Positions 7,462-38,358 of a stretch of 44,262 nucleotides of DNA are shown here, one piece after another. Numbering within the stretch: position 1 is the stretch's first letter; the number at the start of each line of letters is the position of its first letter. The notes beneath the pieces are model-generated. The model was not told where the DNA came from, did not search any database, and worked only from the letters and a program-made list of their open reading frames with translations. Position numbers and translations under genes: made by a program. The stretch is from Oscillospiraceae bacterium (GTDB lineage: Bacteria; Bacillota; Clostridia; Lachnospirales; Lachnospiraceae): NCBI GenBank assembly GCA_963607995.1, contig CAVDGK010000001.1, positions 1-44,262 on the forward strand. Reading direction: 5' to 3'.

Positions 7462-8820
7462 ATGGGAACGACGCGGGTTGGTTCAATGACGGAGGGAGCT
7501 CCGTGGAAACATATATTGAAGTTTGCTATGCCAGTGCTGGCAGGGTCATTTTTGCAGCAGCTTTACAGCACGGTGGATGCCATTGTTGTGGGAAACTTTT
7601 CCGGTGAGGCTGCCTTGTCTGCCGTTGGTACCACCAATAGCTTCACATTTTTATTTTTAGCCCTGGCTATGGGATTTTCATCAGGCAATGGCGTTCTGGT
7701 GGCCCAGTTTTACGGGGCAGGGGATAAGGAAAATGTCCGCAAAAGTGCATCCAGCGGTATTTTATTTCTTTTTCTCATCGGTATTGGGGCTACTATTGTC
7801 AGCATTCTGGTTTCGAGACCGGCCTTTACCTATCTGATCAATGTTCAGGAAAGCTACCTGGACATGACACTTCAGTATTTTAGAATTTACGCCCTGGGTC
7901 TTATTTTCCAGTATGGATATAATATTTTCTCTGCTATCCTGCGGGCTGTGGGAGACAGTGCGGCGATGATGTATTTTCTTCTTATTGCATCAGTTGCCAA
8001 TATTGGCCTGGATCTTCTCTTTGTGGCAGGATTCCATTGGGGCGTTGTGGGAGCGGCTGTGGCGACAGATATTTCCCAGGCGGCATCCTTTGTGGCAGCC
8101 TATTTCTATATGGTGAAAAAATATCCGGTGTTCCGCTTCAAATTGGGAGATTATAAGTGGCATACGGATTGTATCAGCAAGACGACCCAGATTGGATTCC
8201 CCATTGCTCTGCAGCTGGTGATTGTTTCGGTAGGTCTGACCTTTATTCAGAGAGCGGTTAATAGTTTTGGGCAGGCCATGACGGCTTCTTTTACGGTTGG
8301 ACAGAGAATTGAAATGTATTTAAATCTCCCCTGCAGTGCGTTCCAAACAACCATGGCTACCTATACAGGCCAGAATATTGGGGCCGGCAAGGTGGATCGG
8401 GTAAAAAAAGGCGTTGCCCAGGGATATATCGTTTCCATGACCTTGACATTTATAGTCAGTCTTCTGGTGTGGATTTTTGCCGGAAATATTCTGGATGCCT
8501 TTGCTCTTAGTGATCAGGCGGCGGTCTATTGTCTGCAGCATTTACGGGCGATTGCCATCGTTAATATTATCCTGGCAACTTATATGCCGCTTTTTGGTGT
8601 ATTCCAGGGAGCTAATCACAGTGCCGTGCCTACCTGTGTGGCGACAGTGGCTCTGACTTTACGTGTCCTGACGACTTATCTTTTCTGCAACAGCAGCTTT
8701 TTCGGATATACCATTATCTGGTGGAATGGTCTATTTGGTTTTGGTGCCGGTGCCATCATTGCATGGAGTTATTTCCTCAGTGGAAAATGGAAGAAAAATT
8801 CCAGAGTATTGGAGAAATAG
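7462..8820 (+). CDS. MATE family efflux transporter
   Basis: MTEG..WKHILKFAMP, QQLYSTVDAIVVG, LRAVGDS, GQNIGAG; about 12 hydrophobic segments. Confidence 0.95.
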   Translation: MGTTRVGSMTEGAPWKHILKFAMPVLAGSFLQQLYSTVDAIVVGNFSGEAALSAVGTTNSFTFLFLALAMGFSSGNGVLVAQFYGAGDKENVRKSASSGILFLFLIGIGATIVSILVSRPAFTYLINVQESYLDMTLQYFRIYALGLIFQYGYNIFSAILRAVGDSAAMMYFLLIASVANIGLDLLFVAGFHWGVVGAAVATDISQAASFVAAYFYMVKKYPVFRFKLGDYKWHTDCISKTTQIGFPIALQLVIVSVGLTFIQRAVNSFGQAMTASFTVGQRIEMYLNLPCSAFQTTMATYTGQNIGAGKVDRVKKGVAQGYIVSMTLTFIVSLLVWIFAGNILDAFALSDQAAVYCLQHLRAIAIVNIILATYMPLFGVFQGANHSAVPTCVATVALTLRVLTTYLFCNSSFFGYTIIWWNGLFGFGAGAIIAWSYFLSGKWKKNSRVLEK

Positions 8821-28670: not shown

Positions 28671-30110
28671 ATGAAGAGAATCATGATTTCGGCCATGAGC
28701 AGCGGCAGTGGAAAAACCACTGTGACTTGTGCTCTTTTACGGGCATTATCCAAAAGAGGCCTTCAGATGGAAGGCTTTAAATGTGGGCCGGATTATATCG
28801 ATCCCATGTTTCAAAGACGAGTGCTGGGGATTCCCTGTCGGAATCTTGATATTTTCCTGCAAGGCGAGAAGGGAGTTTTGAGAACCCTCGCCGGGCAGAA
28901 GGGCGAAGTGGCGGTGTTGGAAGGAGCTATGGGGCTTTTTGATGGCATTAATGGTACCGAAAAAGACAGCGCCTACCATGTGGCGACTTTGACGGATACG
29001 CCCATCATTCTCGTTATAAAGCCTTCCGGCGTTGGCCTGACCCTGGCAGCTCAGGTGAAGGGGATGCAGGAATTTAGAAAGCCGAATCTCATTGCCGGTA
29101 TTATTTTAAATGACTGCAAGGAGTCACTTTTTCATTATCTGAAGGATCTTTTGGAGAGGGAATGCCACATTCCGGTGCTGGGTTATCTGCCGAAAATACA
29201 GGAGGCGGCTTTTGAAAGCCGGCATCTGGGCTTGGTGACTGCAGATGAGATTTCTGATTTTGATCAGAGAATGGATGCGTTGGCGGAGGCTCTGGAAAAG
29301 GGATGTGACCTGACAGCACTGCTTAAACTTTGCAGAGAGGGCAGGGTATGTGACGATCAAAAGAGAGGATCTAAGGCTGTTCAAAAAATAGAAGAAAAGA
29401 AATCCTCTGACGGAGTTTCTTTGAAACAAGAAGGAAATTTTTCCGATAACCCGAAGGATTTACATCAATCAGGGGAAAGACGATTAAATGAAGCACAGTG
29501 TCGCATTGCTATTGCCCGGGATGAAGCCTTTTGCTTCTATTACGAGGAAAATATCGAGGCCTTGATAAATGCCGGGGCGGAGATCATTTACTTTAGTCCC
29601 TTGCGGGATAAGGAAGTGCCTGAAGCGGAGGGACTTTATCTTGGAGGCGGTTATCCGGAACTATATATTAAAGAATTGAGTGAAAATGTCTCCATGATGG
29701 AAAGTATTCGAAAGTGTCATGCAAAGGGCATGCCGCTTTTTGCGGAGTGCGGTGGTTTCTTAAGCCTTCAGAAGACACTGGGTGGTGAAAAAATGGCAGG
29801 TATTCTTCCTGGAGATGGCTTTAAAACAGATCACCTGCAGCGGTTTGGTTATGTGACTCTTACAGCTGAAAAGGAATCTTTTTTGTTTAAGGCGGGAGAG
29901 AAAATACCGGCCCATGAGTTTCATTATTGGGATTCTACGGACAATGGCAGCGACCTTTATGCCGAAAAATTAAATGGAAGAAACTGGAAATGTGCCTTCT
30001 GCACGGAAAATATGTATGCAGGATTTCCACATCTTCATTTTGGAGGGGAACTGCCATTGGCAGAGAGATTTGTTCAGGCTGCGGTTAAGTATAAAAAAGG
30101 GAAAATTTAA
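28671..30110 (+). CDS. cbiA: Cobyrinate a,c-diamide synthase
   Basis: SGSGKTT, FKCGPDYIDP, SRHLGL, DEAFCFYY, GGGYPE, AECGG, HEFHY. Confidence 0.96.
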   Translation: MKRIMISAMSSGSGKTTVTCALLRALSKRGLQMEGFKCGPDYIDPMFQRRVLGIPCRNLDIFLQGEKGVLRTLAGQKGEVAVLEGAMGLFDGINGTEKDSAYHVATLTDTPIILVIKPSGVGLTLAAQVKGMQEFRKPNLIAGIILNDCKESLFHYLKDLLERECHIPVLGYLPKIQEAAFESRHLGLVTADEISDFDQRMDALAEALEKGCDLTALLKLCREGRVCDDQKRGSKAVQKIEEKKSSDGVSLKQEGNFSDNPKDLHQSGERRLNEAQCRIAIARDEAFCFYYEENIEALINAGAEIIYFSPLRDKEVPEAEGLYLGGGYPELYIKELSENVSMMESIRKCHAKGMPLFAECGGFLSLQKTLGGEKMAGILPGDGFKTDHLQRFGYVTLTAEKESFLFKAGEKIPAHEFHYWDSTDNGSDLYAEKLNGRNWKCAFCTENMYAGFPHLHFGGELPLAERFVQAAVKYKKGKI

Positions 30111-30130
30111 AACGAAAGAATATTTGTCTT

Positions 30131-31102
30131 ATGGAGATTATTTACGCGGCCCTTTTGGGCTTTATTATAGATTTATTTCTGGGTGATCCCTCCTGGATCA
30201 TCCACCCGGTGGTTATGATGGGCCGGGCTATTTCGGCATTAGAAAAAATCCTGCGGAAAATATTTCCTAAAACGGAAATGGGAGAACTGATGGCAGGCCT
30301 GTGTCTGGCCATTATCCTGCCGGTGGGAACATTTTGCATTTCCGTGCTGGTTCTTTATTTACTGGGACTTATTCATCCGGTTCTGCGTTTCATTATGGAA
30401 GTGATCTGGAGTTGGCAGGTGCTGGCCCTTCACGGACTTTGGAGTGAGAGCATGAATGTGAGTCGTGCACTGGAGACGAAAACTCTGGATGATGCACGGA
30501 AGGCTGTTGGCCGCATTGTCGGCCGGGATACCCAAAATCTGACAAAGGAAGGGGTAGCAAAGGCTGCCGTTGAAACCGTGGCAGAGAATTTCTCGGATGG
30601 TGTTATGGCACCGCTTATTTACCTTATTATTGGCGGAGCTCCCCTGGCTCTTGCCTATAAAGCGGTCAATACCATGGACAGTATGGTAGGGTATAAAAAT
30701 GATAAATATCTCTATTTTGGCCGATGTGCGGCAAAACTGGATGATATCGTCAATTTCATTCCGGCCCGTCTTTCGGCGCTGATTCTTATTTTGTCGGCAG
30801 GTATCTGCAGACAGAATATGCCAAAGGCCTGGAAAATTTGGAGACGGGATCGGTTCAACCATGCCAGCCCCAATTCAGCCCAGACGGAGGCTGTTATGGC
30901 GGGGGCTTTAGGCGTACAGCTGGCAGGACCGGCCTATTATTTTGGAGAATTATATGAAAAACCCACTATCGGAGATGCAGAACGTCCTATCGAAACAAAG
31001 GACATTAAACGGGCCAATGTGATGATGGCAGCCGGCGGTGTGATAGGATTAGTAATTTTCTGCCTGATCAGGATGGTAGTTTGTCTAATATTGAAGGTTT
31101 GA
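30131..31102 (+). CDS. cbiB: Adenosylcobinamide-phosphate synthase
   Basis: GDP..HPV, IVGRDT, ETVAENFSDG, YKAVNTMDSMVGYKN, HASPNS. Confidence 0.96.
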   Translation: MEIIYAALLGFIIDLFLGDPSWIIHPVVMMGRAISALEKILRKIFPKTEMGELMAGLCLAIILPVGTFCISVLVLYLLGLIHPVLRFIMEVIWSWQVLALHGLWSESMNVSRALETKTLDDARKAVGRIVGRDTQNLTKEGVAKAAVETVAENFSDGVMAPLIYLIIGGAPLALAYKAVNTMDSMVGYKNDKYLYFGRCAAKLDDIVNFIPARLSALILILSAGICRQNMPKAWKIWRRDRFNHASPNSAQTEAVMAGALGVQLAGPAYYFGELYEKPTIGDAERPIETKDIKRANVMMAAGGVIGLVIFCLIRMVVCLILKV

Positions 31103-31123
31103 TAATTGAATATAAAAAGTATT

Positions 31124-31151
31124 TGCAGGCCATAACAGGCCTGCATTTTTT
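31124..31151 (+). terminator. Intrinsic terminator after cbiB
   Basis: TGCAGGCC-ATAACA-GGCCTGCA-TTTTTT. Confidence 0.75.
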
Positions 31152-31153
31152 AA

Positions 31154-31202
31154 TCGTATAGGAAACTTCGTTCCTATACAATTAAAACGCTCTGCGAGAA
31201 TG
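31154..31202 (+). repeat. Short intergenic repeat, copy 2, at the left edge of the insert
   Basis: Matches 28590-28638; contains hairpin GTATAGGAA..TTCCTATAC. Confidence 0.75.
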
Positions 31203-31359
31203 TATAATTGCACGAAAAAGAGATATGTCGCATGCGACATTGGTGACAGCTGCGATAACTTGAAAAACTCGCAAAGCGTGTTTCTTATAGTTACTGAAAT
31301 TACAAAAAGAGAAACGAATAAAAAAAAAGATATAAAATATGAGAAAAAAGAGCTTCACA

Positions 31360-31388
31360 TTGACTTGAACCTTGATAAATGGTATCAT
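31360..31388 (+). promoter_or_regulatory. Sigma-A promoter of the islet ATPase
   Basis: TTGACT (31360-65), 17 bp spacer, TATCAT (31383-88) with TGn; GGAGGTG RBS downstream. Confidence 0.7.
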
Positions 31389-31423
31389 CGTTATACTCAG
31401 TGCTGTACGGAGGTGATTTCTAC

Positions 31424-32845
31424 ATGGATACAATCGTAAGATTAAAGAATATTACTATTGAAAATTTCAAAAACGTTAAGTGCGGTCAGCTGAGTTTTAC
31501 TAATAACAGAAAGAATTATCACACCAGCATCCTCGGATTATATGGTCAAAATGGTTCTGGAAAGACGGCCTTGATTGATGCTCTTAATCTGTTACAAATG
31601 GCATTAAAAGGTCAGCCGGTTCCAATAAAGTTTGCTGATTATATTAATGTAGAGGCAGACTATGCTTTTCTTCGTTACGAGTTTTCAATTTCAGATAAAG
31701 AAGAGAAATATCAGGCTTTCTATGAATTTAAGCTGTCAGCCGAGAAGAGCGAAACAGCTCAAAATGTGGAAGCCACTGAGAGTAATGAGGCACACTTTAA
31801 ACCCGTTATAACAGATGAAATATTGAGTTACGCATATGAAAGTTCATTTGTGAAAGTACGGAAAAGTGTTTTGATTGATACGTCCACACAAAGGATTTTT
31901 ACACCAGCTGGAAAATATGCCTGTCTTGTTGGAAAAGACCGGGATGTTGCCATGAATCTTATGGTGGATAAAAAGATTATTAGAGGGGCATCTCGTTCCT
32001 TTATTTTTTCCAGGGAATTACTGTCGATTATAAGAAATAATAAAGTCGGTAAAGATGATGAAGAGTACCAACGGCATATGCGGTTGATTGAAAGTCTGGT
32101 TCATTATGGGAATTTTGAACTTTTTGTAATTAATACGACAAATTCCGGCATTATCAGTATGAATATGCTGCCTCTTTCCTTTAAATTTGAAGATGGTGCA
32201 AAGGGAGCAGTCGGAAATATTCTAATTCCATTGGAAGAGACTGTACCAATCCCAGAGGAAGCTGTTTCTATGGTGGAACGTGTTGTTCTGAATATGAATG
32301 TTGTTCTTTCCAAAATAGTGCCGGGGCTGACTATTAGTCTTGAAAATCTGGGAGAAATGATTTCGACTAATGGTAAAAAAAACGTACGGATTCAATTGAT
32401 GTCTTTAAAAAATAAGAAGGCAATTCCATTGAAATATGAATCTGAAGGCATCAAAAAAATTATATCAATCCTTCAGCTCCTTATCGTGGTTTACAACCGT
32501 TCTTCCATTACAGTTGCAATTGATGAACTGGATGCAGGTTTATTTGAATATCTCCTCGGCGAATTGCTTCGTATTATTTCTGAAAAGGGGAAAGGACAGT
32601 TGATTTTTACTGCTCATAATCTGCGCCCGCTGGAAACTCTGGATCGTGGATTTATTGCATTTACAACGACAAATCCTTCTAACAGATATATTCGAATGAG
32701 CAATCTCAAGGATACAAATAATCTCAGAGATTTTTACTTTCGGGATATTATTCACGGAGAACAAAGCGAAGAAGTATATGACATAACGAACAACTCAGAA
32801 ATCGCCCGCGCATTTGAAGAGGCAGGTGAGTTTAAGGGTTCGTAA
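31424..32845 (+). CDS. ABC-type/AAA_21 (AbiEii/RloA-like) ATPase
   Basis: ITIENFKN, Walker A GQNGSGKT, signature ESEGIKK, Walker B IDELDAG, FTAHN. Confidence 0.88.
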   Translation: MDTIVRLKNITIENFKNVKCGQLSFTNNRKNYHTSILGLYGQNGSGKTALIDALNLLQMALKGQPVPIKFADYINVEADYAFLRYEFSISDKEEKYQAFYEFKLSAEKSETAQNVEATESNEAHFKPVITDEILSYAYESSFVKVRKSVLIDTSTQRIFTPAGKYACLVGKDRDVAMNLMVDKKIIRGASRSFIFSRELLSIIRNNKVGKDDEEYQRHMRLIESLVHYGNFELFVINTTNSGIISMNMLPLSFKFEDGAKGAVGNILIPLEETVPIPEEAVSMVERVVLNMNVVLSKIVPGLTISLENLGEMISTNGKKNVRIQLMSLKNKKAIPLKYESEGIKKIISILQLLIVVYNRSSITVAIDELDAGLFEYLLGELLRIISEKGKGQLIFTAHNLRPLETLDRGFIAFTTTNPSNRYIRMSNLKDTNNLRDFYFRDIIHGEQSEEVYDITNNSEIARAFEEAGEFKGS

Positions 32846-32960
32846 AATTTGTTTTCTCATTGAGAAAACATTATTACCATATGAAGAATTTTGCATTGAC
32901 AAGCCGGAGTATGAATATGGCTTGGAAAGCTTCATTGAGAATAAAGAAGATCTTCAGTGA
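32826..32960 (+). pseudogene. Possible remnant of the ATPase partner gene (TOPRIM/RloB-like start)
   Basis: 44-codon frame overlapping the ATPase stop reads ..RVRKICFLIE.., resembling the basic-hydrophobic-Glu start of such partners, then stops. Confidence 0.35.
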
Positions 32961-33000
32961 AAGAGATATTAATGAGATTGAAATCTCTTTGATATAAATG

Positions 33001-33060
33001 AAAAAAGCACATAACACATGTGTTACGCGCTCATTTCAGAGTATGTTAGATACTCCCTAG
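33001..33060 (-). ncRNA. Candidate ~60-nt minus-strand small RNA upstream of the DUF4417-like gene
   Basis: Minus-strand TATAAT (33066-71), hairpin GAGTAT-CTAAC-ATACTC, then an 11-bp stem closed by G-U pairs only on the minus strand and U6. Confidence 0.5.
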
Positions 33061-33160
33061 ACACGATTATACTAACATACTCTCTGGAATACGAGCAAGC
33101 AAAACATACGTTTTGTGCATTGTTACCCAGGGAGGCTTAGCTATTATAGTAATCCTTCCG

Positions 33161-33190
33161 GTGCAGCTTATTATGGCTGCATTTGTTTTT
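33161..33190 (+). terminator. Leader terminator/attenuator upstream of the DUF4417-like gene
   Basis: GTGCAGC-TTATTATG-GCTGCAT-TTGTTTTT. Confidence 0.55.
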
Positions 33191-33253
33191 GTACAAGCGT
33201 ATAAAGTCCGCGCAGGTCAGATATGACGCAGTTTGTCTCGAAGGAGGGACACT

Positions 33254-34021
33254 ATGAAGAAATTTGAGTATCACATTAATGAATACGGGGAAAGAATAAA
33301 AGTTCCCAAAAATCTGAAAAAATTATTAAACCTTCAGTATTTGAGAATCACAAACAAAACATATTCAGCAGGTAGGCATGATTTGCCGGAACTAAAATGC
33401 AACACGACAGAATTTCCCGATTTTATAGCTTTATACAATCATCCGGCAGACTATAAGAAAACGCCGAAAACAGCTGTGTCATTTTATTTATATGATGAAG
33501 AATTTGACGGTAGAAACGGTCTATATAATGCCATTTATTATAATGATCAAAAGTTGCTTCAGAGATATAAAGAACGCTTTAAAGACGTTAAATATTTTAT
33601 TTCGCCTGATTATAGTCAGTTTGGAGATGTGGATGACATTGAAAATCATTATCGAATAAAGAAATCCCGAGTTGTTTCGATATGGCTGACATTGGAATTA
33701 GGGGCAATAGTGATTCCAAATATTACTTATCCAACAATAGATAGTTTGTGGTTTTCTTTAGATGGAATGGAATCTTGTACGGTAGTTGCTTTTAGTACAA
33801 TGGGATATGTGGATAATAAAATTGAAAGAGAATTTTTGATTGAGGCAGTTAAACTGACTGTAGATAAACTGCCGCTTAAAACAATTATTGTTTTTGATAT
33901 TTGTGGAGATAATAATGCGATAGAGGACATATTCGCATACGCCAGACAGCAAGGCGTGGATATAATTGTTCCGGATAATATAATGAAAATTCGCAACACA
34001 GCTAGGAAGAGAGGTGCTTGA
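33254..34021 (+). CDS. DUF4417-like protein
   Basis: SFYLYDEEF, ISPDYS, VIPNI, VAFST match the FY..D..F / PDFS / VIP / A.ST pattern I associate with DUF4417; AAGGAGG RBS. Confidence 0.75.
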   Translation: MKKFEYHINEYGERIKVPKNLKKLLNLQYLRITNKTYSAGRHDLPELKCNTTEFPDFIALYNHPADYKKTPKTAVSFYLYDEEFDGRNGLYNAIYYNDQKLLQRYKERFKDVKYFISPDYSQFGDVDDIENHYRIKKSRVVSIWLTLELGAIVIPNITYPTIDSLWFSLDGMESCTVVAFSTMGYVDNKIEREFLIEAVKLTVDKLPLKTIIVFDICGDNNAIEDIFAYARQQGVDIIVPDNIMKIRNTARKRGA

Positions 34022-34022
34022 A

Positions 34023-34532
34023 ATGCACGGATCGAATAGTGGACAGGCAAAAGGAACAAAAGGATCACCACAGATAACATTTGAACAGATGGAATATGCT
34101 AAGAGGGTAGAAGAAGCAGAAAATAATGAAAGGCTACGTCAACATTATTTGAAGGCAGAATTGCCCAAAACGTCTCCTATAAATGTGCCTGAGTCAGCGG
34201 TAGTAAAAGAAGAACAAAAACAGGGATATAAACAGGTGAAATATTCATGGGAAAAAGATGGATATAGATACTTAAGCAGGTGGCATAGCAGAACGCCAAA
34301 TGCACCGGAAAATCAGGGCGATTCATGGGTGGTTGAAAGGAAAACACCCGGTATCGGATATGGACCAAATGCAAGAAATGCAAAGACGGAGATACTTGTA
34401 GGTAAAACATCTGGTGGAAAAAATATCTGGATTGATAAAAAAATATGGGATGCGGCTATATATGCGAGAAAACATGGTATTTGCACCAAAGAACAGGAGG
34501 AAATCTTAAAGCATGGACATTGGGAAGCATGA
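34023..34532 (+). CDS. Putative polymorphic toxin-like protein: short Gly/Ser leader plus probable nuclease domain
   Basis: MHGSNSGQAKGTKGS leader; C-domain GY.QVKYSW...RWHSRTPNAP..QG.SWVVER...GHW resembles toxin tips of MuF/LXG proteins (recollection); starts right after the DUF4417 stop. Confidence 0.6.
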   Translation: MHGSNSGQAKGTKGSPQITFEQMEYAKRVEEAENNERLRQHYLKAELPKTSPINVPESAVVKEEQKQGYKQVKYSWEKDGYRYLSRWHSRTPNAPENQGDSWVVERKTPGIGYGPNARNAKTEILVGKTSGGKNIWIDKKIWDAAIYARKHGICTKEQEEILKHGHWEA

Positions 34533-34884
34533 AGATATTTATAGATTTTATGAAGGGTATGAAGGTGAAAAGGAAATTATTATTTCGCTTTCAGATACTA
34601 CATATCATTTTTGGGATGGATATTTTGAAGATATCTTTGGAAACCCGCAATCATCAGCAACAGGATGGACAGGATTTACTCGTGATTATAATGAATGTAT
34701 AAATGCTTTTGAGGATACCTGCATTGAATGCGCTCTCATACCGAATGAATATTTGAAAGATTTGAAATTATATCAAGGACATAACTTTATGTATCCGGAG
34801 ACAAAAGATGTGCTCGAATGTTTGATTAAAATAATGGAGAATTCAATTGAAAAAGGTGAGTACGTTTATGTAAAAGTGAATTGA
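34513..34884 (+). CDS. Putative cognate immunity protein
   Basis: Small acidic aromatic-rich protein (YEGYEGE, WDGYF, GWTG) overlapping the 3' end of the toxin-like gene. Confidence 0.6.
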   Translation: MDIGKHEDIYRFYEGYEGEKEIIISLSDTTYHFWDGYFEDIFGNPQSSATGWTGFTRDYNECINAFEDTCIECALIPNEYLKDLKLYQGHNFMYPETKDVLECLIKIMENSIEKGEYVYVKVN

Positions 34885-35028
34885 TTTATACATGTAATTC
34901 TCTGAGTAACCGAAATAATTATGCATACAATGAAAAATACATCTGTATGGCTTATAATAGTAGAAATCTTTTGAGTCAACATATTCTTTTGATTCGGAAA
35001 CTATGTGAAAAACAGGAGCAATGAAACT

Positions 35029-36090
35029 TTGAAGAAATACCAGCACGGTGGTGATTGGGCCGGATATAAAATAGAATATGGCAGCGAACCGCTGGATTTT
35101 TCAGCAAATATCAGCCCGCTCGGATTGCCGGAGAGCGTAAAAAAAGCTGCAATTGAAGCCCTGGATCAGGCTGATCGCTATCCGGATCCCCAGTGTCGGA
35201 AACTGCGGGAAAAGATTGCCGGACATTTGGATATTTTGCCGGAACAGATCCTTTGTGGAAATGGGGCAGCGGACCTTATTGATCGTCTGGTGCAGACAAT
35301 AAAACCCAAAAAGGCTCTGCTTACAGCCCCTACTTTTGGGGAATATAGAGTGGCCCTTGAAAGGTGTGACACTGAGATATCAGAATATATGCTTCAGGAG
35401 AAAAATGATTTTCGTCTTGATGAGGGGATTCTGGATGCGATAAAAGATGATACGGATATCATTTTTATCTGTGAACCCAATAACCCTACAGGGGTAACAG
35501 CCGGAAAAGATCTTCTTAAGAAAATACACGAGAAATGTCTGAAGACAGGAACTCTTTTATGCCTTGATGAGTGCTTTAATGATTTTCTGGATGAACCGGA
35601 AAAACATACACTTCTTAGTGAAATAGAAAAAGGCCATCTTATTATCTTAAGGGCTTTTACGAAATTTTATGCCATGGCGGGTCTTCGCCTTGGATTTTGC
35701 ATTTCAGGGGAAAGAAAGCTTTTGGAAGAAATGTCAATGGCAGGCCAGCCCTGGTCTGTTTCCCATATCGCCCAGGAAGCAGGATGTGCAGCCCTTGATG
35801 AAAAGAAATACGGTGAAAAACTGAGCAGGCTCATACGAAGGGAAAGATCTCTGCTCCGGGAAGGTCTTGAAACAATGGGATGCCGTGTGGTTTGCGGAGA
35901 AGCCAATTACCTTTTGTTTTTCCATGAAGATAAAGATTTGTGTGAAAAGTTAAGAAAGAAAGGAATTCTGCTTCGATCCTGTGCTAACTATAATGGCCTT
36001 GGAAAAGGCTGGTACAGAGCGGCGGTAAAGAATAAAGAAGATAACGAGAAATTTTTGCAGGTAATGAGAGGAATACTGGAACATGAGTAA
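35029..36090 (+). CDS. cobD: L-threonine-O-3-phosphate decarboxylase (PLP-dependent)
   Basis: HGG, DFSANISPLG, YPDP, GNGAA, PNNPTG, AFTKFYAMAGLRLG; TTG start 10 nt after AGGAG (frame open from 35005). Confidence 0.92.
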   Translation: MKKYQHGGDWAGYKIEYGSEPLDFSANISPLGLPESVKKAAIEALDQADRYPDPQCRKLREKIAGHLDILPEQILCGNGAADLIDRLVQTIKPKKALLTAPTFGEYRVALERCDTEISEYMLQEKNDFRLDEGILDAIKDDTDIIFICEPNNPTGVTAGKDLLKKIHEKCLKTGTLLCLDECFNDFLDEPEKHTLLSEIEKGHLIILRAFTKFYAMAGLRLGFCISGERKLLEEMSMAGQPWSVSHIAQEAGCAALDEKKYGEKLSRLIRRERSLLREGLETMGCRVVCGEANYLLFFHEDKDLCEKLRKKGILLRSCANYNGLGKGWYRAAVKNKEDNEKFLQVMRGILEHE

Positions 36091-37567
36091 GAGCATTATG
36101 GTACAGGGCACTATGTCGGGAGCCGGCAAAAGCCTTCTGACGGCAGCCCTTTGCCGTATTTTCAAAGAAGATGGTTATAAAGTAGCTCCTTTTAAAAGTC
36201 AGAATATGGCCCTTAACAGTTATATTACGGCAGATGGTTTGGAAATGGGACGTGCGCAGGTGGTTCAGGCTTATGCAGCCGGACTGGAGCCGGATGTCCG
36301 TATGAATCCCATTCTGCTCAAACCTTCCAGTGATGTGGGAAGCCAGCTGATCGTTGGAGGAAAAGTCAGAGGCGACTACTCCGCCAAGAATTATTTTAAA
36401 ATGAAGAAGAGCCTCATTCCGGAGATCATGGAGGCTTATAACAGTCTTGCTTCAGAAAATGACATTATGGTTATAGAAGGGGCCGGCTCACCTGCTGAGA
36501 TTAACCTGAAAGAGGATGATATCGTCAATATGGGTTTTGCCAAACTTTCAAATTCGCCGGTTATTCTTGTAGGGGACATCGACCGGGGTGGTGTATTTGC
36601 TCAGCTTTATGGAACGATTGCTCTTCTTGAAGAAGATGAAAGGAAACGTATCATCGGAACGGTTATCAATAAATTCCGGGGAGACGTGGATATTTTAAAG
36701 CCGGGGCTTTCCATGCTGGAAGAAAAAACGGGAATTCCGGTGTTGGGAGTTGTGCCTTATACGAAGGCAAAGATTGATGACGAGGATTCTCTGGCACCAT
36801 CCCTGGAAGAGACGAAGGTTCATAAGGTGATCGATATTGCAGTTATCCGTCTTCCGCGGATATCAAACTTTACGGATCTGACACCCCTTGAGCAGCATCC
36901 GGCTCTGGGAGTTCGGTATGTTTCGCATATGGAAGAACTTGGAAATCCGGATTTTATTATTCTTCCGGGAACAAAAAATACCATGGGTGATCTTGAGTGG
37001 CTTCGAGAAAATGGACTTGAAATGCGTATCCGCCAGCTTTATGCCAAAGGGACACCAGTCCTTGGAATCTGTGGTGGCTATCAGATGCTGGGAGAAAAAT
37101 TAAGCGATCCTGAAAATGTTGAGCATGGTGGTGAAATGACCGGCATAGGCATTCTTCCTATAGAAACGGTTTTTGCCGGACAGAAGGTGAGGACGCGGGT
37201 AAGCGGACAGGTGGCAGGTTCACCATTTGAGCATGCTCAGATAGAAGGTTATGAAATTCACATGGGAAAAAGCATAAGCACGAGAGAAGTTCAGCCATTT
37301 TGTATATTCCCGGATGGACATACAGACGGGGTATCCCTTGAAAATGCCTGGGGCACTTATCTCCATGGCCTCTTTGATACAGGAGAACTGGTAACGACTT
37401 TGGCAGATTTCCTTCTTACAAGGAAGGGTCTGAGTACAGGAAACTATGAAGCTGTCAGCCATAAAGCCTACCAGGAGGAACAGCTTGACATCCTGGCAAA
37501 AGAAGTCAGAAGCGGCCTTGATATGGAGGCCATTTATCGGGCGATGGATAAATTTAATTTGCATTAA
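36083..37567 (+). CDS. cbiP: Cobyric acid synthase (CobQ)
   Basis: QGTMSGAGKS, PFKSQNMALNS, EGAGSPAEINL, GICGGYQMLG, GYEIHMG, GTYLHG. Confidence 0.97.
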   Translation: MSKSIMVQGTMSGAGKSLLTAALCRIFKEDGYKVAPFKSQNMALNSYITADGLEMGRAQVVQAYAAGLEPDVRMNPILLKPSSDVGSQLIVGGKVRGDYSAKNYFKMKKSLIPEIMEAYNSLASENDIMVIEGAGSPAEINLKEDDIVNMGFAKLSNSPVILVGDIDRGGVFAQLYGTIALLEEDERKRIIGTVINKFRGDVDILKPGLSMLEEKTGIPVLGVVPYTKAKIDDEDSLAPSLEETKVHKVIDIAVIRLPRISNFTDLTPLEQHPALGVRYVSHMEELGNPDFIILPGTKNTMGDLEWLRENGLEMRIRQLYAKGTPVLGICGGYQMLGEKLSDPENVEHGGEMTGIGILPIETVFAGQKVRTRVSGQVAGSPFEHAQIEGYEIHMGKSISTREVQPFCIFPDGHTDGVSLENAWGTYLHGLFDTGELVTTLADFLLTRKGLSTGNYEAVSHKAYQEEQLDILAKEVRSGLDMEAIYRAMDKFNLH

Positions 37568-37683
37568 AAATTGACAAACAAAACGCTAGCCGTTGATATC
37601 TTTTTTTGATCGAAAATAAGGCAAAAAAGAAGTGAAATTGAAGTAATATTGAAGCAGGAGAACAAGACTGGAGGAAAATATAA

Positions 37684-38358
37684 ATGCAGTACACACATCT
37701 GACACCTTCGGATATTGAACGGACAAGCATGTCGATCATTTCGAAAGAGCTTGAAGAAATGGGCATTAAAATTCCGGAAGAAAATATGGCAGTGGTGAAA
37801 AGAGTTATTCATACCACGGCAGATTTTGAATTTGCAAAGACACTTAAATTTACTTCAAATGCGACGCAAAGAGCTGCCGAGGCTATTACCAAAGGCATTA
37901 CCATTGTGACAGATACCAATATGGCCAAGTCCGGTATCAGCCAGATTGGTCTTGATAAATTTGGCGGCAGGAAAGAGTGTTTTATGTCCGATGCGGACAT
38001 TGCGCAGGAAGCAAAAAATGAAGGCACAACCCGGGCGGCAGCATCCATGAAGAAAGCAGCAAAGCTTTACCCGGGATGTGGGATTGCCTGCGGCAATGCT
38101 CCAACAGCCCTTATTGAAATCTGCCGGCTGATTCGGGAGGAGGGTTTCCGACCGGCTTTTGTGGCAGCCATACCTGTTGGTTTTGTGAATGTAGTGGAAG
38201 CCAAGGAAGAAATCTTCGAACTTTGTGGAGAACGGGATATTCCCTGCATCGCAGCCATGGGAAGAAAAGGCGGCAGTACCATCGCAGCTACCATTTGCAA
38301 TGCTCTTATTTATTCCGCAGCTGACATGCTGGATCCGGCAAAACGCGGATGGAACTAA
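37684..38358 (+). CDS. cbiC: Cobalt-precorrin-8 methylmutase
   Basis: IE..SM.II, RVIHTTADF, TDTNM, GNAPTAL, PVGFVNVVEAK, GRKGGS. Confidence 0.96.
   Translation: MQYTHLTPSDIERTSMSIISKELEEMGIKIPEENMAVVKRVIHTTADFEFAKTLKFTSNATQRAAEAITKGITIVTDTNMAKSGISQIGLDKFGGRKECFMSDADIAQEAKNEGTTRAAASMKKAAKLYPGCGIACGNAPTALIEICRLIREEGFRPAFVAAIPVGFVNVVEAKEEIFELCGERDIPCIAAMGRKGGSTIAATICNALIYSAADMLDPAKRGWN

Follow-up and report, generated by a model that had tools for sequence, protein, structure and literature searches.

Analysis of a 44,262-nucleotide stretch of DNA from an Oscillospiraceae bacterium (contig CAVDGK010000001.1, the whole stretch being referred to as the window) identified a three-gene locus at positions 33254 to 34884, in which a gene of the DUF4417 family is followed by a gene for a predicted toxin that starts with a short Gly/Ser-rich tag, and by a gene for a predicted immunity protein. 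We lean towards reading this trio, which recurs in many genomes, as a polymorphic toxin module of the delivery type, in which the tag would be bound or modified by the DUF4417 protein and would stand in for a secretion domain. The features of the locus are as follows.

33254..34021, + strand: DUF4417 protein of 255 amino acids (PF14386), long subfamily, predicted TIM barrel, transglycosylase-like
34023-34532, + strand: predicted toxin gene, 169 amino acids, basic (isoelectric point, pI, 9.28)
34023..34079, + strand: Gly/Ser-rich N-terminal tag of the toxin, residues 1-19, MHGSNSGQAKGTKGSPQIT
34155..34532, + strand: predicted C-terminal toxin domain, residues 45-169
34513..34884, + strand: predicted immunity protein, 123 amino acids, acidic, directly after the toxin gene

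The first gene, whose ATG is preceded by the ribosome-binding site GAAGGAGG, matched PF14386 with 67.9 bits (cut-off 28.9, E 1e-18, profile positions 3-168 of 183) and scored 68.4 bits in the whole-genome search. The ATG of the toxin gene (34023) lies one base past the DUF4417 stop codon (34019-34021), and its ribosome-binding site, AGGAAGAGAGG, sits within the 3' end of DUF4417. The toxin gene and the third gene overlap by 20 nucleotides (nt), and an AGGAGG sequence lies 11 nt upstream of the latter. The toxin begins with MHGSNSGQAKGTKGSPQ, contains 6 Trp and 6 His residues, and is of a length that fits its closest full-length homologues (146-173 amino acids). No hydrophobic segment was found in this protein (Kyte-Doolittle maximum of 0.15 over 19 residues), nor any Pfam domain, so it has no recognisable secretion or trafficking domain and only the disordered 19-residue tag. 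The third protein has a pI of 4.38, with 24 Asp and Glu residues as compared to 10 Lys and Arg residues. These data bear out a preliminary description, made from the DNA sequence alone, in which the first gene was taken to be DUF4417, the three genes to be tightly coupled, the middle protein to combine a Gly/Ser leader with a basic, His/Trp-containing domain and to have neither a signal peptide nor an LXG, RHS or MuF domain, and the third protein to be small, acidic and encoded across the end of the toxin gene.

The association between tag and DUF4417 was examined in 79 loci that encode the toxin domain. A short Gly/Ser-rich N-terminus was found in 56 of these, all with DUF4417 upstream, as compared to none of the 17 loci in which the toxin has another N-terminus; a further 4 of the 79 loci are cut by a contig end. 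The DUF4417 gene ends between -25 and +1 nt from the toxin start in 55 of the 56 tag-bearing loci, the exception being locus L049, where the tagged toxin forms a second cassette that lies 906 nt downstream. Both of two degraded toxin genes (in L067 and L078) also have DUF4417 upstream. Viral contigs were additionally scanned blind with a degenerate DNA pattern for MGxGxxGxFGxTxG, which gave 17 matches. Four of these (two of them near-identical) are located at true N-termini, each 2-3 nt after a DUF4417 open reading frame (ORF), and the remaining 13 are internal, none with DUF4417 within 4 kb.

We also compared the genes that follow DUF4417. The family falls into two subfamilies, a long one of about 255 amino acids, to which the window protein belongs, and a short one of about 220 amino acids. 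The metagenome set contained 80 loci of the short subfamily, of which 75 have room for a downstream gene. This next gene (+1) starts with MG[AGT]G in 71 of the 75 loci, within the overall pattern MG[AGT]G..GGFGxTxG; in two exceptions the start differs (L170, L229), and in two others there is no adjacent ORF (L163, L195). DUF4417 genes in viral contigs were sought with separate alignments of the subfamilies. At the 11 viral loci, nine +1 genes start with MGG or MGS, one has only the core FTGTKG (L106) and one locus has none. DUF4417 was rare in an even draw of 401 genomes from the phylum, where it was found in 10 genomes; at the eight other loci above the cut-off, the +1 gene starts with MGG in five and with MGT in one, carries the motif internally in one (GGRGAS, about 80 residues in), and lacks it in one. 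In L113 (2070-2834), the gene that follows a ParB_N-DUF4417 fusion has the GGRGAS motif about 80 residues from its start, and cleavage of a pro-region may expose the tag there.

The type of tag tracks the DUF4417 subfamily. Behind the long subfamily the tag reads MxxxNSGxxxGTSGSPQ, behind the short subfamily MGxGxHGGFGxTxG, and the phage forms are mostly MGGRG. The product of gene 27 of Streptococcus phage A1 begins with MGGRGASSG, and in mycobacteriophage SWU1 (L111) an ORF at 1073-2077, which overlaps the end of the DUF4417 gene (gene 1), begins with MGGRGSKGG. The annotated start of ORF2 in SWU1, at 1298, is in the same frame as this longer ORF, and the start of ORF2 may be misannotated in cluster A mycobacteriophages. 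A sub-threshold match to DUF3626 was observed at the C-terminus of the tagged SWU1 protein. Among 76 distinct leader DNA sequences, all four Gly codons are used at each conserved Gly, and leader positions left free by the search pattern likewise keep their residue while the codons vary synonymously (His6 in 64 of 76, Gly8 in 63 of 76). The peptide is thus conserved despite the variation of its codons, which argues against a mere DNA recombination handle, and this pattern indicates that the tag is selected as a peptide.

In total, 148 pairs of DUF4417 and +1 genes were collected, in which the parts of the +1 proteins past residue 20 form 30 C-domain clusters. The cargo behind DUF4417 and the tag comprises at least 30 unrelated C-domains, each paired with its own downstream gene. 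The C-domains differ in 44 of 147 pairs of loci in which the DUF4417 proteins are at least 90% identical. Named families among the tagged cargo are Ntox50 (L049, L060, L100), Tox-REase-3 (L100), CdiA_C (L084), an ADP-ribosyltransferase (ADPrib_exo_Tox, L107), a YwqJ-type deaminase (YwqJ-deaminase, L106), an LHH nuclease (L230) and DUF6883 (L162, L236); the majority of the clusters have no Pfam name. The 64 complete tagged proteins from the metagenomes represent 15 C-domain clusters, and the clusters of the following gene (+2) match these nearly one to one where a +2 ORF was found (14/14, 9/9, 6/6, 4/4, 4/4 and three times 2/2). One exception is a C-domain cluster of eight, in which seven loci have no adjacent +2 ORF. 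In the other, the five copies of the window-type toxin in this set are split over two +2 clusters, which is probably due to ORF calling. The preliminary description had stated that genes behind DUF4417 often start with Gly-rich leaders on variable C-termini, and had proposed that the +2 gene covaries with the C-domain; both hold in this larger set of loci.

Some loci contain more than one unit of cargo. The order of genes in L049 is DUF4417, tag-Ntox50, a small gene, tag-toxin and immunity gene, and in L064 toxin-immunity units are repeated behind a single DUF4417 gene. The arrays in L049 (1010-4120) and L064 (3488-10354) include three families of small genes (c8, c9 and c23) without a Pfam family. 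Several tagged toxins appear from their sequences to have a PT-TG-like segment between tag and toxin, in short forms on which Pfam is silent. An orphan 3' fragment of DUF4417 was observed in the viral contig of L084 (3807-3998, minus orientation), directly before the tagged CdiA_C gene and about 1 kb past a complete copy of the gene. The fragment resembles a scar left when a cassette was inserted, and the junction is therefore also a site of cassette exchange. In L047, a gene for a Tox-GHH nuclease, followed by a small gene (7493-8388), lies about 0.5 kb past a DUF4417-toxin-immunity cassette.

A homologue of the third protein is located immediately 3' of the toxin domain in 77 of the 79 toxin loci, whatever the N-terminus of the toxin; the two loci without one are L075 and L079. 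The search recovered 56 homologues of this protein, which belongs to no Pfam family. In the ESM Atlas, taken here as a source of leads, the predicted immunity protein lies near a cluster of DMP12 DNA mimics (0.93), and a 164-amino-acid homologue (P0075) carries the precomputed domain PF11195.

The toxin protein was modelled with high confidence (pLDDT 92). The tag is disordered in the model, with a pLDDT of 48 and 69 in the first two blocks of 10 residues, and is followed by a long linker helix (residues 20-50) and a six-stranded sheet with two helices. No PDB structure was matched by Foldseek at E<=0.001, and no relatives were found in the PDB by phmmer or by profile searches. Residues R86, W87, H88, R106 and H166 show little or no variation. 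An exhaustive, profile-free search recovered 301 cluster representatives with the toxin domain (residues ~45-169) at E<=1e-3. In all of these the domain forms the C-terminus, and the longest carrier has 2478 amino acids. We scanned 74 of the longer homologues with Pfam at a cut-off of 1e-4 and identified LXG in 6, WXG100 in 2, RHS in 3, PT-HINT in 2, PT-TG in 2 and eCIS_core in 1; 2 of the 74 have a peptidoglycan-binding domain, one RHS carrier also has SpvB and TcdB regions, and 56 of the 74 have no Pfam family at this cut-off. Among the genome loci, L076 encodes an RHS/PT-HINT carrier. This distribution indicates that the C-domain is a mobile module shared by the type VII secretion system (LXG, WXG100), RHS and other delivery architectures. 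The preliminary description had placed the domain at the tips of LXG and MuF toxins; the first half of this stands (6 of 74), and the second has the weaker backing of sub-threshold Phage_Mu_F matches in three carriers from the genome loci (E 0.005-0.007), with no Phage_Mu_F domain found in the window toxin itself. A distant link to Ntox30 (PF15532) is possible, as 3 of 41 members gave matches below the gathering score (best E 0.038) and L079 reached E 0.0013 with 19.4 bits (cut-off 25). The ESM Atlas places the toxin near clusters with Ntox30, Ntox17 and Tox-HNH-EHHH. We infer from the sequence comparisons that the C-domain is a putative nuclease-like toxin.

The model of the DUF4417 protein is also confident (pLDDT 89.5, pTM 0.85). 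Residues D119, S121, W144 and P155 of DUF4417 are invariant. Foldseek returned only TIM barrels, with a TM-score of at most 0.40. The best fold matches belong to the tRNA-guanine transglycosylase family (TGT, DpdA, Cap10), and the resemblance to transglycosylases is weak. No match to TGT (PF01702) was found with Pfam at E<=1 or by profile against the PDB, and hhalign gave a probability of 1%, which is a weak test with 2 TGT sequences kept out of 14 loci. Searches of the PDB with phmmer and profiles recovered no relatives of DUF4417. Members of the TGT family have a C-terminal zinc-binding subdomain with a Cys/His cluster. The barrel forms the C-terminal end of the window protein, in which three Cys residues (49, 175 and 217) are scattered, and there is no C-terminal zinc subdomain. 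The genome contains one clear QueC gene, which is located on another contig, and its TGT gene is also elsewhere. Phage records label DUF4417 genes as 'nuclease' (SWU1, L111 472-1092) or 'DNA modification methylase' (Javan258, L112 2938-3609), and no domain that supports these names was seen in those genes. The papers that name DUF4417 or PF14386 in our literature search do not study its role, and a search on polymorphic toxins with an N-terminal glycine and phage returned nothing relevant.

In relatives of the locus, the genes upstream of DUF4417 most often encode an XRE-type helix-turn-helix (HTH) protein and a Peptidase_M78 (ImmA/IrrE) protein, fused or split; other upstream neighbours are Fic with a winged HTH (wHTH) protein, or AAA_21 with RloB (L043). 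In the window, only an AbiLi-like ATPase gene is found upstream. In the Streptococcus phages A1 and Javan258, the DUF4417 gene immediately precedes terS, terL and portal. Fusions of ParB_N to DUF4417 were also found, and their occurrence is described in a preprint (bioRxiv 10.1101/2025.10.10.680097). One viral contig carries a cassette of the window type after tail and lysis genes, in the order HTH, M78, long-type DUF4417, MNHGNSGLAHGTSGS-DUF6883 and DUF4926. The cassette thus occurs in a viral contig as well as alone in chromosomes, and it is therefore a small mobile unit that is both phage cargo and standalone.

The trio lies in a low-GC island between two genes of the cobalamin operon, which spans 28671-38358 and is interrupted by the island:

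31103..35004, no strand assigned: low-GC inserted island between cbiB and cobD
31379-32845, + strand: ABC/OLD-type ATPase, AbiLi-like (Pfam AAA_21 2.9e-11, AAA_15 7.1e-11)
28671-30110: cbiA/cobB-like gene, cobalamin operon
30131-31102: cbiB, left neighbour of the island, cobalamin operon
35005-36090: cobD, right neighbour of the island, cobalamin operon
36083-37567: cobQ, cobalamin operon
37684-38358: cbiC-like gene, cobalamin operon

The island is 3.9 kb long and has a GC content of 0.356, as compared to 0.454 and 0.446 in the left and right flanks. Its four genes, for the ATPase, DUF4417, the toxin and the third protein, are all on the + strand. Neither the ATPase nor DUF4417 was found at the cbiB loci of the 19 congeneric genomes examined, in 14 of which cbiB is followed by cobD; the 3.9-kb low-GC stretch is therefore an insertion into the cobalamin operon. 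A check of its borders for direct or inverted repeats gave none of note. The island was also considered as a prophage remnant, which was rejected: there are no phage genes nearby in the window, and 14 related cassettes are flanked by housekeeping genes. A strong bidirectional, terminator-like hairpin was observed immediately 3' of cbiB (31124-31145), and the downstream cob genes may therefore require a promoter of their own; a promoter-like site is present at 34930-34958.

The ATPase of the island matches the AbiLi model of PADLOC at 9.2e-29. No RloB/AbiLii partner was found among the ORFs of the window, a tblastn search of the window with the RloB protein of L043 was empty, and a degraded AbiLii/RloB gene was sought between the ATPase and DUF4417 genes and not found. 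The pair of an AbiLi ATPase and an AbiLii/RloB-type partner that makes up the AbiL defence system is thus incomplete in the window. Hairpins at 32999-33038 and 33160-33183 lie between the ATPase and DUF4417 genes, and the ATPase is probably a transcription unit separate from the trio. It is not similar to the ATPase encoded before DUF4417 in L043, and may either regulate the cassette or be an orphan defence gene.

Polymorphic toxins reportedly share, after Zhang et al. 2012, C-domains that are common to several proteins, a downstream immunity gene, a conserved N-terminal part, a trafficking domain and a toxicity that the cognate immunity protein neutralises. The C-domain studied here is shared across N-terminal types, the downstream gene covaries with it, and a conserved N-terminal part is combined with variable C-termini; a recognisable N-terminal secretion or trafficking domain is not present in the window toxin. 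Three described systems resemble the module in part. The MuF toxins of temperate phages (PMC5576092) also have interchangeable C-domains with immunity genes and are associated with the DNA-packaging module of phages of Firmicutes, and the present domain also occurs behind MuF-like regions with the sub-threshold matches mentioned above. Their carrier, however, is a fused MuF head-protein domain, whereas the present cassettes use a tag of about 15-19 residues with a separate DUF4417 gene, and most DUF4417 cassettes were found outside prophages. The S8-PTS (PMC9424270) likewise have three components, with a gene for an accessory enzyme beside a polymorphic toxin of many alternative C-domains and its cognate immunity gene, and were discovered through the logic of gene neighbourhoods; they differ in that their toxins bear a signal peptide together with a BetaH domain and that the accessory enzyme is a subtilase, whereas the tagged toxin has no signal peptide and its accessory protein is a predicted cytoplasmic TIM-barrel DUF. 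The PT7(Bc) DNase with its immunity protein PIM7 (PDB 8owu; bioRxiv 10.1101/2021.10.19.465003) is similar as a small LXG-associated Firmicute toxin domain with an acidic immunity protein, but there is no sequence similarity, it has 76 residues as compared to about 125 in the present domain, and the residues named there are D37 and H47, as compared to the conserved R86, H88, R106 and H166.

A closer parallel for the tag itself is found in type IV CBASS, where, in a preprint (bioRxiv 10.1101/2025.04.06.647259), the TGT-like Cap10 is described to bind the N-terminal tail of CdnD (peptide 2-15, GGSGGSFGSGFDPR) in its pocket, and Gly2 of CdnD to bear a 7-deazaguanine that is added by the QueC-like Cap9; according to its authors, the base might be inserted into nucleic acid through its free N9. 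Similarly, QatB has an essential MGTS start that is acted on by QatC (PMC13279940). The tags behind DUF4417 strongly resemble these tails. The common element is a flexible, Gly-rich N-terminus of the partner protein that serves as a functional handle (CdnD MGGSGGSFGSGF, QatB MGTS), and a TIM barrel of transglycosylase shape that is paired with a tailed partner in the case of Cap10, such a barrel being predicted for DUF4417. The partners of DUF4417 differ from that of CBASS in being interchangeable toxins with immunity genes, not a cyclase. DUF4417 also differs from Cap10 in having no sequence similarity to TGT and no match among the PADLOC models, none of which matched the toxin or the third protein either.

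The strict adjacency, the tracking of subfamily by leader type and the weak transglycosylase resemblance of the fold all suggest that DUF4417 recognises or modifies the leader and may serve as trafficking or activation partner of the toxins, as proposed in the preliminary description, and it is likely that it recognises the tag directly. The pocket of its TIM barrel would hold the flexible tag in the way that Cap10 holds the Gly-rich N-terminus of CdnD, and DUF4417 would process or couple the tag. The toxin would thereby be loaded for delivery, most likely onto phage DNA or into phage particles, since the phage DUF4417 genes sit in the packaging module and are often fused to ParB_N. The immunity protein would protect the carrier cell. 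The upstream pair of HTH and ImmA/IrrE-type peptidase probably switches expression in the relatives of the cassette, a position occupied by the AbiLi-like ATPase in the window. A more specific version of the mechanism is that DUF4417 is a transglycosylase-fold enzyme that couples the cargo tag covalently to DNA or a nucleobase, so that toxins and other effectors would enter phage heads on the packaged DNA and be injected into the next cell, a route that small chromosomal cassettes could use by borrowing resident phages. It builds on the published speculation about the free N9, on the ParB_N-DUF4417 fusions and on the position before terS, terL and portal, and we consider it unlikely; if true, it would amount to a tag-and-enzyme route of protein delivery that replaces secretion systems.

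Several observations weigh against a delivery module in which DUF4417 acts on the tag. Residue 2 in the subfamily of the window is His, Lys, Arg, Asn, Ala or Ser, and the window tag starts with MH, not with MG as do the tails of CdnD and QatB; a free N-terminal glycine is therefore not expected, unlike in the MGG and MGAG types. A CxCxxC zinc motif is absent from the DUF4417 sequence, and no QueC/Cap9-like gene was found in any annotated DUF4417 neighbourhood, as a result of which the chemistry of Cap9 and Cap10 is not simply transferable to DUF4417. The 14 annotated genomic cassettes are flanked by varied housekeeping genes, with one IS110 transposase among the flanks and no phage structural genes; with these cassettes and the island of the window located among housekeeping genes, delivery by phage would need a helper. 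Related loci are moreover not independent, and the counts of loci given above therefore exceed the number of independent events.

An intracellular switch against phage, in which DUF4417 holds or modifies the tagged toxin and releases or activates it upon infection (abortive infection), with the third gene as antitoxin, is in our view rather unlikely overall. In its favour, the cassettes lie in chromosomes without phage genes, the Gly-rich tail with a TGT-like partner has exactly the layout of Cap10 and CdnD, and defence-related neighbours are present: the AbiLi-like ATPase in the window, AAA_21 and RloB before DUF4417 in L043, Fic with wHTH or HTH with Peptidase_M78 upstream in many loci, and genes for a Schlafen-type helicase, a MazG-like and a HigB-like protein in L011. 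However, these C-domains also occur on exported toxins (LXG, WXG100, RHS), the PT-TG-like segments and toxin-immunity arrays (L049, L064) follow the pattern of conflict between cells, the phage pair is located in the packaging module and not in defence islands, and PADLOC recognised none of the three proteins. An ordinary addiction pair of toxin and antitoxin genes, which would keep the island stable with DUF4417 as an unrelated passenger, is very improbable: the small basic toxin and small acidic partner with overlapping genes, in an island without integrase or secretion genes, agree with it, but it conflicts with the adjacency to DUF4417 in 56 of 56 tagged as compared to 0 of 17 untagged loci, which holds for 30 unrelated C-domains, and with the location of the toxin domain, in other proteins, at the tips of large exported toxins.

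It is also quite unlikely that DUF4417 acts on DNA, by modification or cleavage, and that the shared 3' end of its gene together with the leader is only a recombination handle and a site of translational coupling for the swapping of toxin cassettes, the leader peptide not being recognised by it. The ParB_N fusions, the overlap of stop and start codons, and the orphan 3' fragment of DUF4417 before the leader gene in L084, which is reminiscent of the displaced tails in rhs loci, would fit such a role, as would the 'nuclease' and 'DNA modification methylase' labels of the phage records, although these are names only. Against this, the tag peptide is kept as its DNA varies, with all synonymous Gly, Thr and Phe codons in use, it persists across DUF4417 proteins that are only about 25% identical, from Firmicute genomes to those of high-GC mycobacteriophages, and its type tracks the DUF4417 subfamily.

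DUF4417 is widespread in phages and mobile elements, and it now gains a concrete and testable partner in a short N-terminal tag. The tag marks interchangeable cargo, in which seven or more named toxin families are represented alongside many without a name, and is a simple way to find new families of toxins and immunity proteins. If DUF4417 binds or modifies the tag, the trio would represent a new class of polymorphic toxin system, with a previously undescribed handling of interchangeable toxins, and transglycosylase-like barrels that act on protein N-termini would extend beyond CBASS. The tag and the enzyme would then form a portable pair for the loading of proteins.

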